Shown in pieces: positions 2,514 through 9,709 of a stretch of DNA of 64,000 nt. A program made the translations under genes and the position numbers. Source of the stretch: an uncultured Planctomycetaceae bacterium (GTDB taxonomy: Bacteria > Planctomycetota > Planctomycetia > Planctomycetales > Planctomycetaceae); assembly GCA_963813715.1 (NCBI GenBank), contig CAWFAK010000005.1, forward strand, positions 992,001 through 1,056,000, written 5' to 3'. Within the stretch, counting starts at the first letter, position 1, and the number at the start of each line of letters is the position of its first letter. The notes under the pieces were generated by a model that was given only the letters and a program-made list of their open reading frames with translations, made no database searches and was not told the origin of the DNA.

Positions 2514-3480
2514 GAGACGACCCAGCGGCCGAGGCACGGCTCCGGTCGCAGCACCGCGATATCGGCTTTTCAACGTCCCGCCGGTGTCCCGCCGTCGAGA
2601 GGTCTCAAAGCTCGATCAACTTTGCCGTAAACCACTTCGCCCGAATTCTGCGGCCCGCCCGTGCGTGCCGCTGCCGATTTCTCTGCCGACCCTATTTCTT
2701 TATCGGCAATCTCCCCAGGGAGGGGAGACGGGTGATCGAGCAAACGGGGGACTGTTTTCGTCAAACAGCCGAAGCAGCCAACCTGCGCAGTCAGTCGACG
2801 CTCATGCCACTCGCAGCGCTTGACCCGCGTGAGTTTTCCGCGTGAATTTACAAGGGCGATTTTTCTAGCCGTCGCCAACCGCAGGATAAGTCGTAACTAC
2901 TGATCCCCATATGTGTTTGCTAGCCTGACCCATGTCAAATTAGACCGCAGATCGCGGGGCGCGTCAAGAACAATCCGCTACGGGCGGCACAAGGGGGCAA
3001 GTCGCCGGGTTCGGTAGAATCGGCCATGTCGACGCGTGGTGCGGCATCTCCAACGTCGCAGGACGGGTGTCGCGGCCAGTTCCCCGACGCGGGCGACACC
3101 GAAGTGGGGCTGAGGCCGATTGTGCCGACGGAATCGATTCTTCTGCGGCACCCTACACGCGACTGGTCATTTCGCGTCGCAGGGAGGGGGAGCGATGGTT
3201 CGTCGAGAGGGCGTTCAGCAGAGAAGATTGCGGCCGCGGCTAAAGAAAAACAGCCGGGAGAATTCCGGCGGTGGGGCAGGAACCACAAGAATTCAGCGTC
3301 CGGCTGCCATTCCCATTTTACTGCGGAAGGGGCGGGCTTGCAAACTTCGGGCAAGGCTGGATTAGAATGCGCGGGCTGCATCTGGAACTCCTTAACCAAG
3401 ATGCGACGGCGGCTGCTCCGGATGGCAGTGCCGCCTCGACGAAGCGACGACGAGACAAATCCGACATCAGCCGTGCTCAC

Positions 3481-3562
3481 GCGAGAGTGGCGGAATTGGC
3501 AGACGCGCCAGACTTAGGATTTGGTGCCGCAAGGCGTGGGGGTTCGAGTCCCCCCTCTCGCA
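3481..3562 (+). tRNA. tRNA-Leu (anticodon TAG)
   Basis: Acceptor stem GCGAGAG/CTCTCGC-A, D-loop GGAATTGGCAGAC, anticodon arm CCAGA-CTTAGGA-TTTGG, long variable arm, T-loop GGTTCGAGTCC. CCA is not encoded. Confidence 0.97.
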
Positions 3563-3750
3563 TTCCCCCGCAGCTGCCCCCTGTGACGTAGAATTCGCGC
3601 GCCGTCACGCGTTCTCCAAGACCTGTTCAGACGTCTCTGTCTCGGCCGCGCACAACTCGCAGAGTCCGGGGACGCACTATCTTCACTCGAGACGCATGAT
3701 TTTTATCCGCTGTGGACGTGCTTCGCCACGCGGCTTCCAAACGTGCGTTT

Positions 3751-3773
3751 TGCAAGTCCCTCTTGCGTTTTTT
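3751..3773 (+). terminator. possible weak intrinsic terminator downstream of tRNA-Leu
   Basis: GCAAG-TCCCT-CTTGC hairpin followed by GTTTTTT. Confidence 0.35.
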
Positions 3774-3820
3774 GGACCGGTCAACTACAAGACCGAAGCC
3801 CCGAGGTAGTTCTTGGCACC

Positions 3821-4072
3821 GACATGGATGTCAGAGTCAAGACCCATCCGAAGCGCCGACCGGTGGCACGAATTCGGGCCGCCCCGGCAGGCGGAGTAAC
3901 CGCCCCTCACGCGCGAGGAGCCTCAAGGCAACGTGCCGGCATGGATGCCGATAACCGGCCGCTTTCTGCACCGGAGCGCTTTCGTGGCGAACCCGGCAAA
4001 GTGGCCCGGATCGCGTCGCACGACCCAGTGGCCGTCGCGATCTGACAAGGATGTAAAGTGCCGGAAAGGAGG
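3821..4072 (+). promoter_or_regulatory. leader (or small RNA) with multiple CsrA/RsmA-type binding hairpins
   Basis: GACA-TGGA-TGTC (3821-3832), CGGCA-TGGA-TGCCG (3937-3950), ACA-AGGA-TGT (4045-4054), plus GGA in the SD AAGGAGG (4066-4072). Matches the ANGGA-in-loop CsrA consensus and lies directly upstream of a CsrA-domain gene. Confidence 0.6.
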
Positions 4073-4080
4073 CCTCGATC

Positions 4081-4866
4081 GTGTTAGTTCTCACCCGCAG
4101 AGAAAACGAGAAAATCTTATTGCCCGACGTGGGCGTGACCGTCGAATTGATGTCGGTCACTGGTAACCGCGCCCGCTTGGGCATCAGCGCTCCCGATAAC
4201 ATTCGCATTCTTCGCGAAGAAGTCGCCGTCAACCAGGCTGTTCTCAAGCAGGCCACGGTTCGCGGTTCGATGTCGCGAGAATTCGTTCATGCCTTTCGCA
4301 ACCGGCTCAACGCGGCCATCCTGGCGGCCGAGACCGTGCGGATGCAAATCGAAGCCGAACGCCTCGACGATACGTCAAGCACGCTCGATCGCATCGTGAC
4401 CGAGCTCCGGGCGATGGCGTCGATGGTCGAAGGACCGCAGCCGGTCGCCGCGCCGCCGCTTGTCGCGTCAGGAGTGGGCGAGCACCGGCCTTGGAAGGCG
4501 TTGGTGGTCGAGGACGACGCCAACGAGAGCTTGCTGCTGGCCGGAATCCTGCGGATGACGGGGTACGAGGTCGACGTCGCCGGTGACGGTGCGGACGCTC
4601 TCGACTATCTCCATTCGCACGCGCGGCCCGACGTCGTGCTGCTCGACATGAAGCTGCCGAAGCTCGACGGGGCCACCACGCTCGGTCGCATCCGCCGGGA
4701 TCCCAATCTCGAGGGGATGAAGGTCTACGCCGTCAGCGCGACGCCGCCCAAGCGGTTTGGCGTGAAGACGGGACCGGGCGGCATCGACCGTTGGTTCTGC
4801 AAGCCTCTTGATCCGCGGGAGCTGGTGCGCCAACTCGATAGCGAGCTGAGCGCCCTCGATCGCTGA
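4081..4866 (+). CDS. CsrA (carbon storage regulator) domain fused to a response-regulator receiver domain
   Basis: N-term MLVLTRRENEKILL...RLGISAPDNIRILREEV (CsrA). Linker FVHAFRNRLN resembles a HisKA H-box. C-term REC: LVVEDD...VVLLDMKLPKLDG...VSA...CKP. Confidence 0.9.
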   Translation: MLVLTRRENEKILLPDVGVTVELMSVTGNRARLGISAPDNIRILREEVAVNQAVLKQATVRGSMSREFVHAFRNRLNAAILAAETVRMQIEAERLDDTSSTLDRIVTELRAMASMVEGPQPVAAPPLVASGVGEHRPWKALVVEDDANESLLLAGILRMTGYEVDVAGDGADALDYLHSHARPDVVLLDMKLPKLDGATTLGRIRRDPNLEGMKVYAVSATPPKRFGVKTGPGGIDRWFCKPLDPRELVRQLDSELSALDR

Positions 4867-4886
4867 CGCCCAGGCGTCAGCGGTTT
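4861..4886 (+). terminator. perfect 10-bp hairpin overlapping the csrA-REC stop (terminator-like)
   Basis: CGCTGACGCC-CA-GGCGTCAGCG followed by GTTT. Confidence 0.4.
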
Positions 4887-5222
4887 GCCGAATTCGGCCG
4901 TCGTCATCGATGGCTGCGTTGCAGTAAGCAGACGGCGCGGATGCAGGATCCGCGCCGCTTCTGAGATCGCACAACTTGCCGGTCCGGCGCCCCCACGCCC
5001 GTGCTGGGCTCGTTCAGCACGGATCGGCGGCCGCTTCAGCTGGGAAAGACACCCACCGTGCAGCCAAAACAATCGCCGCGCTCGCTGCCCCCTTCCGGTC
5101 GCGAGGCCGCCCCGTCACGCAATCTGGCTTTCGACTTCCAGCGGTCGGAGTTTGACACGGCCGCTCAGCCCTACGAAACATTTCAGACCACCACCGACGA
5201 GCCGCTCCCCCGACATTGGAAC

Positions 5223-6717
5223 ATGAACGGCATCAACATCGGCGAAAGTCTCCGTCGCGCCCTCGAGGTGTGCGAGGCGGCCTTCGACGACATCGTCGAT
5301 AAAAGCGCCGACGGTGTGGTCGTCGTGAACCCCGTCGGCACGATCTGTTTTGCCAACGCGGCCGCCGAATCGATGCTGGGCCGCTCGACGGGCGAACTTC
5401 TGGGCGAACCGTTCGGAATGCCGGTGGGGGCCGGCGAAACATTCGAGATGAAGCTGCCCTCGACCGATCAGGGCTGCCACTTCGCCGAAATCCGCGTCGT
5501 CGCCACCCATTGGCAGGGCTCGCCCGCCTTGCTGGCCACCCTGCGCGACGTCACGCAGCGCAATCGGGCCCTGCGCCGTCGCGACGAATTCCTGGCCATG
5601 CTGTCGCACGAACTGCGCAATCCGCTGGCGGCCATCTCCAGCGCGGCGAGCGTGCTGGCCCGCCCCGACCTCGACGGCGACGCCTTTGCCAGAGCCCGCG
5701 GCGTCATCGAACGGCAGTGCGCAAATGACCCGCCTGCTGGCCGATCTGCTCGACGTCTCCCGCGCGACCCGCGCGAAGATCGAGCTGCGCAAGAAATGCC
5801 TCGACCTGGTCGACGTGATCATCGAAGCCGTCGACGCGGTGCGCGGCGAAGCCGAGGCCGTCGGCCAGACCGTGTCGCTGGTTGCCAGTGTCGACATGAT
5901 TCCAGTCGACGGCGACGCGGTGCGCTTGCACCAGGTGTTTGTGAACCTACTTTCCAATGCGTCCAAGTTTTCCGGTGCCGGAAGCCCAATCCGGGTGATG
6001 GTGGGGATTGAGGAGGATCAGGCGGTCGTCAAAGTCCGCGACCAGGGAATCGGGATGACGCCCGAGGTGTTGGAGGCCGTGTTCCAGCCCTTCGTCCAGC
6101 TCGACTCGTCGCTGGATCGGCCCGGCGAGGGCCTGGGTCTCGGCCTGGCGATTGCCGATTGCTTGATCAAGCTGCACGGCGGCGCGGTGCGGGCGTCGAG
6201 CGAAGGCCTGGGAAAGGGGAGCGAGTTCTGCGTCCGCCTGCCCCTGTCTCGCTCGCGTCCCGAGTCGGCGCCCACGTTAGCCGACGCCGCGACGGAGACG
6301 GCGCTACGCGTGGTGATCGTCGAGGACAACGCCGACGTGGGCGAGATGCTCAAAACGTTGCTGGAGTGCGTGGGGCATCAGGTGGAGATTGCCGCCGACG
6401 GCCTGACCGGCGCGGAACTGATCGAACGCATGCATCCGGACGTGGCCCTAATCGACATCGGCCTGCCCGCGCTCAACGGTTACCAGCTCGCGCAGCGAAT
6501 TCGCTCCGACGACGCCCATCGGGACGTCTACTTGGCGGCGCTCACCGGCTACGGACAAGCGGCCGACCAGGAGAAGGCCCTGTCTTCGGGCTTCGATACT
6601 CACATCGCCAAGCCCGTCAGCGTCGAGCACCTGCGCAGACTGCTTGCTTCGCGACAACGAGTCCGCCTCAACGTGGCGGCAGCCGAAGAAGCGCAAGCCG
6701 AGCTACCCGCGCGTTGA
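5223..6717 (+). CDS. hybrid sensor histidine kinase (PAS-HisKA-HATPase_c-REC); frameshift near 5720
   Basis: PAS (DGVVVVNPVGTICFANAAAESMLG), H-box FLAMLSHELRNPL, N-box QVFVNLLSNASKF, G-boxes DQGIG and GLGLGL, REC VALIDIGLP...KP. Two overlapping ORFs (5001-6011, 5686-6717) are joined. Confidence 0.9.
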
Positions 6718-6939
6718 CTTGGCGGCTCACCTGTCTAGTTTCGGTCCGAATTGGAACCGGACCGGCGTCGCGCGCCACTAAGCGTGGGCCGCGCCCCCAC
6801 GTTTCCGCGGAACCCCCTGTCGAATTCGTCTTTCCCAATTTGACGGACTCTGCTATGTGTTCCCGGCCGAATCTCCCGTTTCTGGGCCAACCGCACGGGG
6901 TGGGGGAGCGGTATCGAGATCGGTCGGGAAAGGATTCCC

Positions 6940-9709
6940 ATGAAAGGCCTGGCTTGGAAGATTGCGCTCGCGACCGCCGTGCTGGCGGTCGGGTTCCTGG
7001 TCATCCTGCAAGCGCAGCGAGGCATGACCCAGGCCATGCTGCAGAAGACGGCCGACGCCCAAGCCGCCAATCAACCTGCCGCGGCACCGGCAGGCGATGC
7101 CGCCGTCGCCAGTACTGCCGTTGCCAGTGACGCTGCTTCCAAGTCGGATCCGTTCGGCGACGCTGCGTCGGCGAGCGATCCTTCGTCTGTGCATCATGGT
7201 GAGGTCGGCAGCGGAGACCCGAAGAACAACGCTCCGAAGGTTGTGTCACCGGTGACGGCTCCGGAAGTTGTCGACAAGGACTCGGGCAAGTCGCCGGCAA
7301 AACCAACCGCGTCGCCCGATGCGAAAGAGTCCACGGCCGCCAACGATCCCTTCGCCGACGGCGGCGACGTGAAGCACAGCGCTCCAGCGACAGAGACGAA
7401 GAGCGCCGCGCCCGCGGGGTCCGAGGTCAAACAGGCGAGTGCATCAACCGAAGCGCTCGGGAAGAACTCCGAGCCGACCGATAATTCATCCCCGCAGGCG
7501 ATGCCGGCCCCCGAACTCCCCGCGCCCAAGCTGCCGGGAGCCGACGGACCTGGGCTCGGCGATTCGAAGCCGGAGGCGAAAGCCAAAGACGCGAGTGCGC
7601 CGCCAAAACAATCGGAGCCCCCCGCCGGACCGCAGATCGATCTGCCCGCGGGAAAGAAGGATGGCGACCAAAAGGACGCCGCTCCAAAGGACGCGGACGA
7701 AAAAGCGGCCGATGGCAAAGCGAGCGGAGGCCCGCAGCTGCCAGCCGGTCCGTCACTCGATCTGCCGCCGACGACCAATGCTGCTCCGGAAAACCCGTCG
7801 CCGCCGACTCCAAAATCGGCGACGAGCAATCCGCCTTTCCCTGGACCGGCCGACGGCGCCGCAACGCCTCCGGCACAATCCGAGCCTACCGACAAATCGC
7901 CCGTGAAATCGGCGGCGGACGCCGCTCCTCCCTCGTCGTCGGGAGGTCCCAAGCCGTTCCCCGAGGAGGGGCCCAAAGAGTCGCCGCTGGCTGTTCCCAA
8001 GCCGCCGGAATCAGTGCCGCCTTCGACGAACTCGCCGGCCCCGGCGATTCCCTCTCCGGCGATTCCGTCTCCCGCGTGCCCCGACAGGCGGCGCGACGAA
8101 CGGCACGCCGGCGAGCCCGATGGTGCTCGACCTGACACCGGGCAACGCTCCTTCCCCAAATGCTCCTGCAACGGGCGCTCCGCCGACCTTGCCCGAAACG
8201 AAGTCGGCCGATACCAGTAACTCGTCGACTCCGGCCCCGACACAGCGGCCGGCGGCCGACTTGCGTTCGGAGGGGGCGGCGGACTTTCAAGGGGACGGCA
8301 CGGTGGGCGAATCGGCTGCACTGGGACCGCAGCGACCCCAGTTGAATATCGAGAAGATCGCGCCGCAGAACGCTCTGCTCGGCCAGCCGCTCATTTATGC
8401 GATCGTGGTCCGAAATGTGGGCCAAAGCGCGGCCCGCGACGTCGTCGTCGAAGATCGCATCCCCAAGGGAACGAAGCTCTCCGGGACGATCCCCCGCGCG
8501 GAACTCACGGGCAAAAAGTTGATCTGGCGGCTCGGCACTTTGGCTGCGGGCGAACAGCGCAAGATCTCCATCCGCGTGATTCCGCAGGAAGCGGGGGAGA
8601 TCGGCAGCGTGGCCACGGTGAATTTCGTGGCCGAGGCGGCCGCCGAAACCGTCGTTACCGCGCCGCGATTGGAATTCAAAATCACCGCGCCCTCGGCAGC
8701 CCGGCTGGGCGAGTCGGTGCCTTTCCGCTTCGAGGTGAGGAATGTCGGCACCGGCGAGGCGCGCGGCGTCGTCATTCGCGACCTGATTCCGCAGGGCCTC
8801 GCGCATACCGCGGGCAACGACCTCGAATACGAAGTGGGACGCCTGTTGCCCGGTCGCTCGAAGCAATTGACGCTCGACCTGAAGGCGGGCAAGGTCGGCA
8901 CGGCCGTCAACCGGGCCGTGGTGCTCGCCGAAGGTGGACTGACTGCCGAGGCGAAGGCCACCATCGAGATCAGCGGCTCCAAAATCGCACTGACACGAAC
9001 TGGTCCGCAGCGGCGCTACCTGGGACGCCAGGCCGTGTTTACCAACACGCTCGTCAACGAGTCGAGTTTTGCGGTCGACGGCGTGGTACTGGTGGAATCG
9101 GTGCCGGCCGGGATGGACTTTGCCGGCGCGTCGCACGGCGGGCAATACAACGACGGCAGCCGCACGATCGCCTGGCGGATCGACCCGCTGTCGCCGGGCG
9201 AAACGCGAGTCGTGAAATCGCGGCTCGTCGCACGAAACCTGGGGAGCCAAACGAGCACCGTTCGCCTCACCGTTCCCAATGGGGAGCCGGTGGAGGCAAC
9301 TTCGCAGACCGCGGTCGAAGGATTTGCTGCCGTGGGGCTCGACGTGACCGGCGTCGACGGCCCGGTCGACCTGGGAGAGAAAGTCACCCTGCACGTCAAC
9401 GCGCGGAACAAAGGGACGGTCCCCGTCACCAACCTCATGTTGACCGTCGAACTGCCCGAGCAGATGGAGGTCGTGTCGGCCCGCGGTCCGGGCAAGCTGC
9501 TGCAGGAACCGGGGCGGCTCAAGTTCGGCCCCATGCCGACGCTCGAGGGACGCACGGCAGCCGCCTGTGAAATCGTGCTGGCGGCGCGTAAACGGGGCGA
9601 TAGTCGGCTGAGGCTGAGCATTCAAGCCGACCAGATCGACAAGCCGCTGGCCCGCGAGGAATCGATCCTGATTCTCTCAGAATCGCCCGAGCCGACCGCC
9701 GCTCGCTGA
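6940..9709 (+). CDS. DUF11-repeat (OmcB-like) envelope protein with a long Pro/Ala-rich disordered N-terminal region; frameshift near 8080-8100
   Basis: N-terminal signal/TM segment, ~350 aa low-complexity linker, then four Ig-like DUF11 repeats (LIYAIVVRNVG...DVVVEDRIPKG; FRFEVRNVG...IRDLIPQGL; and so on). Confidence 0.8.

Follow-up and report, generated by a model that had tools for sequence, protein, structure and literature searches.

A planctomycete CsrA protein fused to a DHp-like hairpin and a receiver domain, and its linked hybrid kinase: a candidate phosphorelay acting on RNA

The fusion gene and the adjacent kinase

The window analysed here is a 64,000-nucleotide (64-kb) stretch of the genome of an uncultured Planctomycetaceae bacterium (assembly GCA_963813715.1, contig CAWFAK010000005.1, forward-strand positions 992,001 to 1,056,000), in which a single gene joins the RNA-binding domain of CsrA to a helical hairpin and the receiver domain of a two-component system. 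The gene is an unbroken open reading frame (ORF) with a GTG start at 4081..4866 on the plus strand and encodes 261 amino acids (aa); an original prediction, made from the sequence alone, had described such a CsrA-linker-receiver fusion, and all the residues that it named were found. Pfam identified a CsrA domain (PF02599) in residues 1-49 (4081..4227, +), scoring 55.4 bits (cut-off 27, E 6e-15) and covering profile positions 1-48 of 53, and these 49 residues align end to end with proteins of the CsrA/RsmA/RsmE family (1y00, 2bti, 2jpp), among them E. coli CsrA 1y00 (E 8.6e-8) and, likewise, RsmE 2jpp. The RNA-contacting residues of CsrA strands beta1 and beta5 are L2, L4, R6, R7 and R44 in E. 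coli numbering, and all are kept in the fusion (L2, L4, R6, R7 and R45, the last aligned to R44 of 1y00), in agreement with the prediction of an intact domain with its RNA-contacting arginine.

The receiver lies at the other end of the protein, in residues 139-260, with the Pfam match (Response_reg, PF00072) on residues 141-252 (4501..4836, +) scoring 64.8 bits (cut-off 30.2, E 9.8e-18), and it has the acidic pocket (E144/D145), the phospho-accepting D189 within LLDM (codon 4645-4647, +), S219 and K241 that had been expected of it. Between the two is a helical hairpin, residues 64-117 (4270..4431, +), which resembles the dimerization and histidine phosphotransfer (DHp) domain of histidine kinases by AlphaFold2 (AF2) modelling, hhalign profile comparison and conservation, and which carries the motif H70-x-x-R73-N74-x-L76 (His70 codon 4288-4290, +). 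With CsrA N-terminal and the receiver C-terminal, the protein does not have the usual receiver-first layout, and at 261 aa with two further domains it departs from the stand-alone CsrA form of about 60-75 aa. A Pfam scan of the protein did not find HATPase_c, and Hpt (PF01627) was not among the five families matched at E <=1. The fusion gene is present without an indel in contigs of four public runs; those of X10 and X14 are metatranscriptome contigs, from a kind of library in which DNA can be present.

A PAS-HisKA-HATPase_c-receiver hybrid histidine kinase follows at 5001..6717 on the same strand (H-box His codon 5607-5609, +; receiver Asp codon 6454-6456, +). The original prediction of a PAS hybrid kinase in this position, ending at the stop at 6717, holds, except that the assembly divides the gene between two reading frames, as ORFs 5001-6011 and 5686-6717, which overlap and both have Pfam matches. 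The window has two bases fewer near 5718-5722 than three related loci (L001, L002 and L011), and the contigs of X1, X2 and X10, the three runs that cover the site, all have 'GC' inserted behind 5718; the contig of X14 ends at 5717. Because the run contigs carry the 'GC', the orthologues are in frame and frame breaks are found also in other genes of the source genome, the break is probably an assembly error, and it may alternatively be a strain variant. In the intact 572-aa orthologue at L001, PAS spans residues 95-148, HisKA 194-257, HATPase_c 305-417 and the receiver 438-548, and a domain scan of that protein found no Hpt.

The two genes thus encode, together and in order, four sites of phospho-chemistry (the His and Asp of the kinase and H70 and D189 of the fusion), and they are linked in 40 of 72 genomes. 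Since the four sites lie in two linked genes, a relay is the simplest reading, in which the fusion would form the final His-Asp pair of a His-Asp-His-Asp relay and this relay would gate the RNA binding of CsrA; we hold this proposal with about as much confidence as doubt. At the other extreme, the phospho-modules could be evolutionary leftovers in a constitutive, long-tailed CsrA paralogue that makes no use of H70 and D189. The broken frame of the kinase in this assembly would suit leftovers, but the break does not appear in the contigs of any of the three covering runs.

Conservation and structure of the fusion protein

A word-indexed search with the fusion protein yielded 929 proteins at E <=0.001, and both CsrA and Response_reg are present in 118 of the best 120 homologous clusters, the two exceptions being 189 and 231 aa long; the database names found on relatives are 'carbon storage regulator CsrA' and 'response regulator'. 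A family alignment was built from the query and 103 of these 120 clusters (n=104; the window's own cluster and 16 of odd length, picked by eye, were excluded) and reaches down to 44% identity. Invariant across it are L2, L4, R6, R45 and E47 of the CsrA domain, H70, N74 and L76 of the hairpin, and D145, D189, W238 and K241 of the receiver, with R7, R73, E144 and S219 conserved in at least 90% of sequences. That the residues of phospho-chemistry are invariant or nearly so at such distances argues against their being leftovers. The receivers also share a family-specific surface, on the face usually used by receivers for output: the alpha4 region (residues 219-241, window 4735-4803) is replaced by a conserved Gly/Pro-rich loop, TGPGGIDRWF, in which G231, G234 and W238 are invariant.

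The family is large and, at 50% identity, comprises no fewer than 150 clusters. When the CsrA and hairpin part was used as a profile to search 1.84 billion representative proteins exhaustively, 63 representatives were found at E <=1e-30, and the best 150 representatives, each at E <=1.1e-27, all span the entire profile. Ninety-six of these 150 are at least 240 aa long, and the shorter ones end within the hairpin or the receiver and are fragments. Full-length relatives were found at 72 loci in a set of one genome per species, all in Planctomycetota (Planctomycetaceae, Pirellulaceae, Lacipirellulaceae, Thermoguttaceae, Gemmataceae and Isosphaera, including three cultured strains), which bears out the suspicion that such fusions exist in other planctomycetes; the other eight loci from the same search are receiver-only matches in other phyla. 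Sampling of the phylum detected full-length CsrA and hairpin in 7 of 300 other genomes (6/15 in the window's family, 1/1 in a second family and 0/284 elsewhere), an undercount that is at odds with the wider spread of the 72 loci, because only 8-15 first-look candidates were scored per genome. Frame changes occur in some relatives, with a 1-base insertion in the fusion gene of L001 (6001-6784) and matches that switch frame in L011, L055 and L064; these are likely to be assembly indels and not pseudogenes.

Besides its single fusion, the source genome encodes about 10 CsrA paralogues that stand alone and are 54-85 aa long; a frame break on contig C16 splits one of them (11 CsrA-matching places in all apart from the fusion). 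No match to FliW was found in this genome, which is 82.6% complete; neither this result nor the Hpt matches of the genome, described below, discriminate between the readings. The paralogues would be available for ordinary repression, and this is one of several features that fit a reading in which CsrA is the input of the protein and not its output: binding of an RNA or of a protein partner to the CsrA dimer would twist the helical bundle and so control phosphotransfer or phosphatase activity directed at receivers, and the cell would sense the occupancy of GGA-containing RNA. The protein has the domain order of a hybrid kinase that lacks its ATPase (N-terminal module, DHp domain, C-terminal receiver), CsrA occupies the sensor position of a kinase directly before the DHp helix, and the receiver is C-terminal, unlike that of most response regulators. 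Against this, no conserved downstream output partner was found beside the gene, the longest of the best 150 representatives has 339 aa, longer forms with CsrA and hairpin (for example, full kinases) were absent from 1790 candidates, which is weak evidence, and the conserved GGA leader described below accords with an RNA-binding output that acts on the mRNA encoding it. We consider CsrA improbable as the input.

The AF2 model shows helices at residues 66-91 and 95-116 forming a hairpin (pLDDT ~85, and 86 when the hairpin is modelled alone), followed by a disordered tether (119-134) and the receiver (pLDDT >90). The original prediction had noted a resemblance between the linker FVHAFRNRLN and the H-box of the kinase next door, and profile comparison upheld it. 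A hairpin profile from 67 genome copies (the 72 loci without L001, L011, L055, L064 and L067, where matches are split or cut) was compared by hhalign with one built from the DHp regions of 38 neighbouring kinases, and the two aligned with a probability of 94.3% (E 1e-7), pairing 'H-a-l-R-N-R-L-N' of the fusions with 'H-E-L-R-N-P-L-a' of the kinases and placing H70 in register with the phospho-His. Twelve controls, two reversed and ten column-shuffled, gave probabilities of at most 3.8%. HisKA was the commonest weak Pfam match of the hairpin (17/67 members at E <=1, best 2.5e-4), and SPOB_a was matched in 6/67 members at E <=1 (best 8.8e-4), all below threshold. Kinase DHp chains (HK853, EnvZ chimera, SrrB, KinB and DesK) are found only among the Foldseek rows for the hairpin at E 1.3-4. 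Conservation of the linker His, a check that the prediction had proposed, was clear, as it is present in 104 of 104 relatives and in 62 of the 67 genome copies.

A homodimer model of the fusion scored 0.62, against 0.00 for the best of three controls. In a rough calibration, for which the analysis's own alignment was used, 20 of 30 proteins with structures solved as same-chain pairs reached the mark for dimers, as did 1 of 23 solved as single chains. The runs share at least 92% of contacts (partner pLDDT >=76), and the predicted interface combines strand-swapped CsrA contacts in residues 1-49 (for example, 34:3 and 32:5 across chains), as in a CsrA-type strand-swapped dimer, with contacts at heptad spacing in residues 64-116; H70 and N74 lie outside it and the receiver takes no part. 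Because solved structures exist for both CsrA dimers and DHp bundles, the model may have passed by reproducing them, and it shows likeness to them and not proof. Foldseek with the whole fusion model returned receiver matches only, the best being RpaA, RR468, CheY and Spo0F (E about 1e-9 to 5e-10), with PhoB also matched.

Kinase linkage and the leader of the fusion gene

Co-occurrence with the kinase, also proposed as a check, was examined at the 72 loci, counting as an orthologue any tblastn match of at least 250 aa at E <=1e-50 within 6 kb of the fusion. An orthologous hybrid kinase was found at 40 of the 72 loci (26 of the 43 with full flanks), and SHELRNPL is kept, reading in frame, in all 40. 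Orientation varies, with 19 kinases convergent, nine downstream and nine upstream on the same strand, and three upstream on the opposite strand. Cultured, non-pathogenic carriers with the two genes next to each other include Bythopirellula polymerisocia Pla144 (L030) and Lacipirellula limnantheis I41 (L072). The same filter gave five kinase matches in the 7.49 Mb of the source genome (six further tblastn rows represent three more kinases, each split in two), from which chance linkage of ~1-2% per locus would be expected; linkage of the fusion and the kinase is far above chance. In a quick tree of the 67 copies and the query, copies with and without a linked kinase are intermixed (26 label changes; shuffled mean 32.7), linked copies are spread over all branches and orientation often changes. 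The 32 loci without a linked kinase could be taken as support for leftovers, but with linkage this far above chance and the conservation described above, we regard disuse of the phospho-modules as very improbable.

Other two-component genes adjoin the fusion at 9 of the 32 unlinked loci. At L003 it is a lone receiver, 48% identical to the receiver of the kinase; L028 and L036 have a non-hybrid kinase and an OmpR-type regulator, L035 has receiver proteins, L040 and L044 have other hybrid kinases, and at L048, L061 and L063 there is a kinase or receiver that is broken or cut at a contig end.

The leader of the fusion gene contains two GGA motifs of interest. The first, ACAAGGAUGU at 4045..4054 (+), 27 nt before the start codon, matches ACARGGATGT and resembles the high-affinity consensus of CsrA. 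This pattern has a single match in the 64-kb window (ACAAGGATGT, 4045-4054) against 0.06 expected, with 5 of 100 shuffles giving at least one, and the decamer ACAAGGATGT is common to the leaders of L001, L002 and L011. The second, GGAAAGGAGG at 4063..4072 (+), is a tandem GGA that overlaps the Shine-Dalgarno sequence 8 nt before the GTG and is a candidate CsrA-type site. Across the family, at least one GGA falls within the final 30 nt before the start in all 72 copies, and two GGAs spaced by 1-3 nt are present in 41 of the 72 leaders. Exact GGAAAGGA occurs at -19 to -14 in 32 of the 72 loci; in the last 30 nt before the start, the shuffle mean is 0.25, with at most 3 in 500 shuffles, and the opposite strand has none. 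GGA is enriched farther from the start as well: between -120 and -31 it occurs 157 times, compared with 96 on the opposite strand and 121 +/- 8 in shuffles (no shuffle above 142), and GGATG is found in 16 sequences against 8.1 +/- 2.6 in shuffles.

In 786 kb of loci, the motif precedes a start and an ORF of at least 80 aa in 38 cases, and 31 of these are the start of the fusion; GGAAAGGA was counted 134 times in the source genome, and in 37 cases a possible start follows it. CsrA represses through GGA sites that lie over the ribosome site, and csrA genes are often autoregulated, according to passages in PMC4679880. The conserved tandem-GGA leader, which is a new finding, suggests by analogy with these cases that the fusion gene may be under CsrA-type autoregulation.

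Additional features surround the two genes. A tRNA-Leu (anticodon TAG) lies upstream on the same strand at 3481-3562, followed by a terminator-like hairpin with a T-run at 3751-3767, and the fusion gene probably has its own promoter within 3775-4040; a scan of 3400-7000 for sigma-70 promoters gave no sites. Terminator-like sites in 3400-7000 number 5, against 2.9 +/- 2.0 in shuffles, with none at the end of the fusion. Between the fusion and the kinase, 4860..4990 (+) can fold as a structured RNA with three GC-rich hairpins (MFE -70.1 kcal/mol, z = -4.55, none of 200 shuffles as stable), one loop of which reads GCAGG and then A. We rejected these hairpins as part of the mechanism, as they are conserved only in the near-identical L001 and not in L002 or L011. 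An Rfam scan of 3300-7000 assigned them to no family and matched only the tRNA.

The gene after the kinase (window 6927-9709) has GGAAAGGA 5 nt before an ATG at 6940 and encodes a Pro/Ala-rich protein with an N-terminal hydrophobic stretch and DUF11 repeats; it is split here into overlapping ORFs (6940-8220 and 8120-9709) and is one 906-aa ORF in L001, beyond which its synteny is not conserved. It is a possible second target of the fusion protein. At L029 (7244-9420), two ORFs of 88 and 525 aa lie between the fusion and the kinase, each preceded by GGAAAGGA, and the start of the longer one looks by eye like a KaiC/RecA-type ATPase.

A candidate relay and its relation to known systems

In the mechanism that we propose, the fusion protein would be a constitutive dimer held together by strand-swapped CsrA domains and a four-helix bundle of two DHp-type hairpins, with each chain ending in a phosphorylatable receiver on a flexible tether. 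A phosphoryl group would pass from the H-box His of the adjacent cytoplasmic PAS hybrid kinase to the receiver Asp of the same kinase, then to His70 and finally to Asp189 of the fusion, and the phosphorylation state of the receiver would alter the binding of CsrA to GGA-containing mRNA leaders and so change translation, with the fusion's own tandem-GGA leader as a likely target, giving autoregulation. The interpretation put forward in the original prediction, that phosphorylation switches a translational repressor directly, possibly through the linker His, is supported by those of its checks that sequence can answer; the switch itself and the route through His70 are what we infer from them. 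The data suggest that a signal may reach translation directly by phosphorylation. The complete proposal is that a two-gene, four-site relay switches a CsrA regulator directly, carrying a cytoplasmic signal to mRNA leaders without a transcription factor, small RNA (sRNA) sponge or FliW, while the protein also represses itself through its tandem-GGA leader; we advance it tentatively, with doubt slightly outweighing confidence.

Several observations weigh against the relay. The HMM check that upheld CsrA and Response_reg left HisKA (PF00512) below its cut-off of 26.9 bits, at 13.8 bits over residues 67-117 (E 0.06) and 17.3 bits for the hairpin alone. A profile search with the hairpin over sequences of solved structures produced only TPR and designed helical proteins (best E 0.14) and no kinase, and Foldseek with the hairpin alone gave nothing at E <=0.001. 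Among the 67 genome copies, the hairpin His is missing in 5, the residue after it is variable (A in 24, D in 15, E in 12), and the Pro of the kinase H-box is replaced. The variable residue and the lost Pro fit a domain that has ceased to autophosphorylate yet still meets the active site of a receiver. One clade (L023, L057 and L060; SH-aLRT 99) has a decayed H-box, with the His lost in L057 and L060 and the Asn in L023, and L057 retains the kinase upstream despite the lost His. An orthologous kinase is not within 6 kb at 32 of the 72 loci (17 of the 43 with full flanks), and 23 of these 32 have no two-component gene either among the two ORFs closest to the fusion on each flank or in the tblastn rows. 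The source genome has 10 classical Hpt matches, all away from the fusion locus, and such proteins could supply the second His of a relay. In the dimer model, the receiver is placed confidently against nothing, which leaves no hint of how phosphorylation would reach CsrA. The leader (4021-4100) folds no more stably than shuffles (z +0.48). Finally, no functional study of a CsrA-DHp-receiver fusion was found in the literature searched.

In a rival reading, control would be direct and in two steps, from the H-box His of the kinase to D189, with the hairpin serving only as a scaffold for dimerisation or docking, or as a phosphatase for its own receiver, and with the kinase receiver as a sink or internal regulator; CsrA would still be the output. 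The invariant Asn at His+4 fits this, as the position is that of the phosphatase residue of HisKA kinases, and so do the lack of a conserved acidic residue after the His, the pairing of the fusion with non-hybrid kinases and an OmpR-type regulator at L028 and L036, and the kinase kept without the His at L057. A pure scaffold would have no need of a His found in 104/104 proteins and 62/67 genome copies, however, and the partner found most often is a hybrid kinase that itself has a receiver (40/72 loci, and L040 and L044 in addition), an arrangement that normally calls for a second His. At L003, moreover, the fusion adjoins a stand-alone receiver like that of the kinase. We therefore rate direct two-step control as unlikely, while the relay through His70 keeps its even standing.

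CsrA is among the best-studied global translational regulators, and to our knowledge all of its known controls are forms of sequestration, by sRNA sponges or by FliW. No description of control of CsrA by phosphorylation was found in the literature searched. The fusion retains what is typical of the CsrA family in its RNA-contacting residues and the GGA over its own ribosome site, is predicted to form a strand-swapped dimer, and has in addition a DHp-like hairpin and a receiver. In the BarA-UvrY (GacS-GacA) system, too, the activity of CsrA is in the end set by a sensor kinase of the hybrid or unorthodox type, as described in PMC4682653 and PMC3171408. That link is indirect, through transcription of the CsrB/RsmY/Z sponge sRNAs, whereas phosphotransfer alone, between the products of two adjacent genes, is proposed to suffice here.

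The targets of response regulators are nearly always DNA, enzymes or motors. The ANTAR regulators AmiR, EutV, NasT and PdtaR share with the fusion a two-component receiver and an RNA-binding output, which in their case acts after transcription initiation (passages in PMC12471899 and PMC7602753). The mode of action of ANTAR is antitermination at paired hexaloop hairpins, whereas the main effect of CsrA is on the access of ribosomes, and the fusion has no ANTAR domain, a C-terminal receiver and an inserted, His-bearing DHp-like domain. This last domain is comparable to Spo0B and ChpT, in that a dimeric helical hairpin with an exposed His and without ATP-binding activity would pass phosphate from one receiver to another, as far as the models indicate. 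Spo0B and ChpT are separate proteins with a C-terminal pseudo-ATPase domain, whereas the hairpin of the fusion is joined to its presumed target receiver and to CsrA, and is followed by a receiver and not by an alpha/beta ATPase-like domain.

The architecture of a receiver with CsrA has already been catalogued, since a passage of PMC2222644 refers to Galperin 2006 for response regulators whose output domain is CsrA. PMC12471899, at one point, lists E. coli CsrA as an 'orphan RR', which is at odds with the domain content of CsrA. The original prediction had known of no characterisation, in keeping with the literature searched here; this study adds a profile-profile test with controls, counts of kinase linkage set against a background estimate, a read-level resolution of the frame break of the kinase, and the conserved GGA leader.

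As the fusion is a compact soluble protein with a candidate kinase and a candidate RNA target, the idea is directly testable with three purified parts, and the system could serve as a portable signal-to-translation switch. If the proposal is true, the fusions would constitute a second kind of RNA-binding two-component output beside ANTAR, and a receiver-controlled CsrA would represent a new control logic for the CsrA family.

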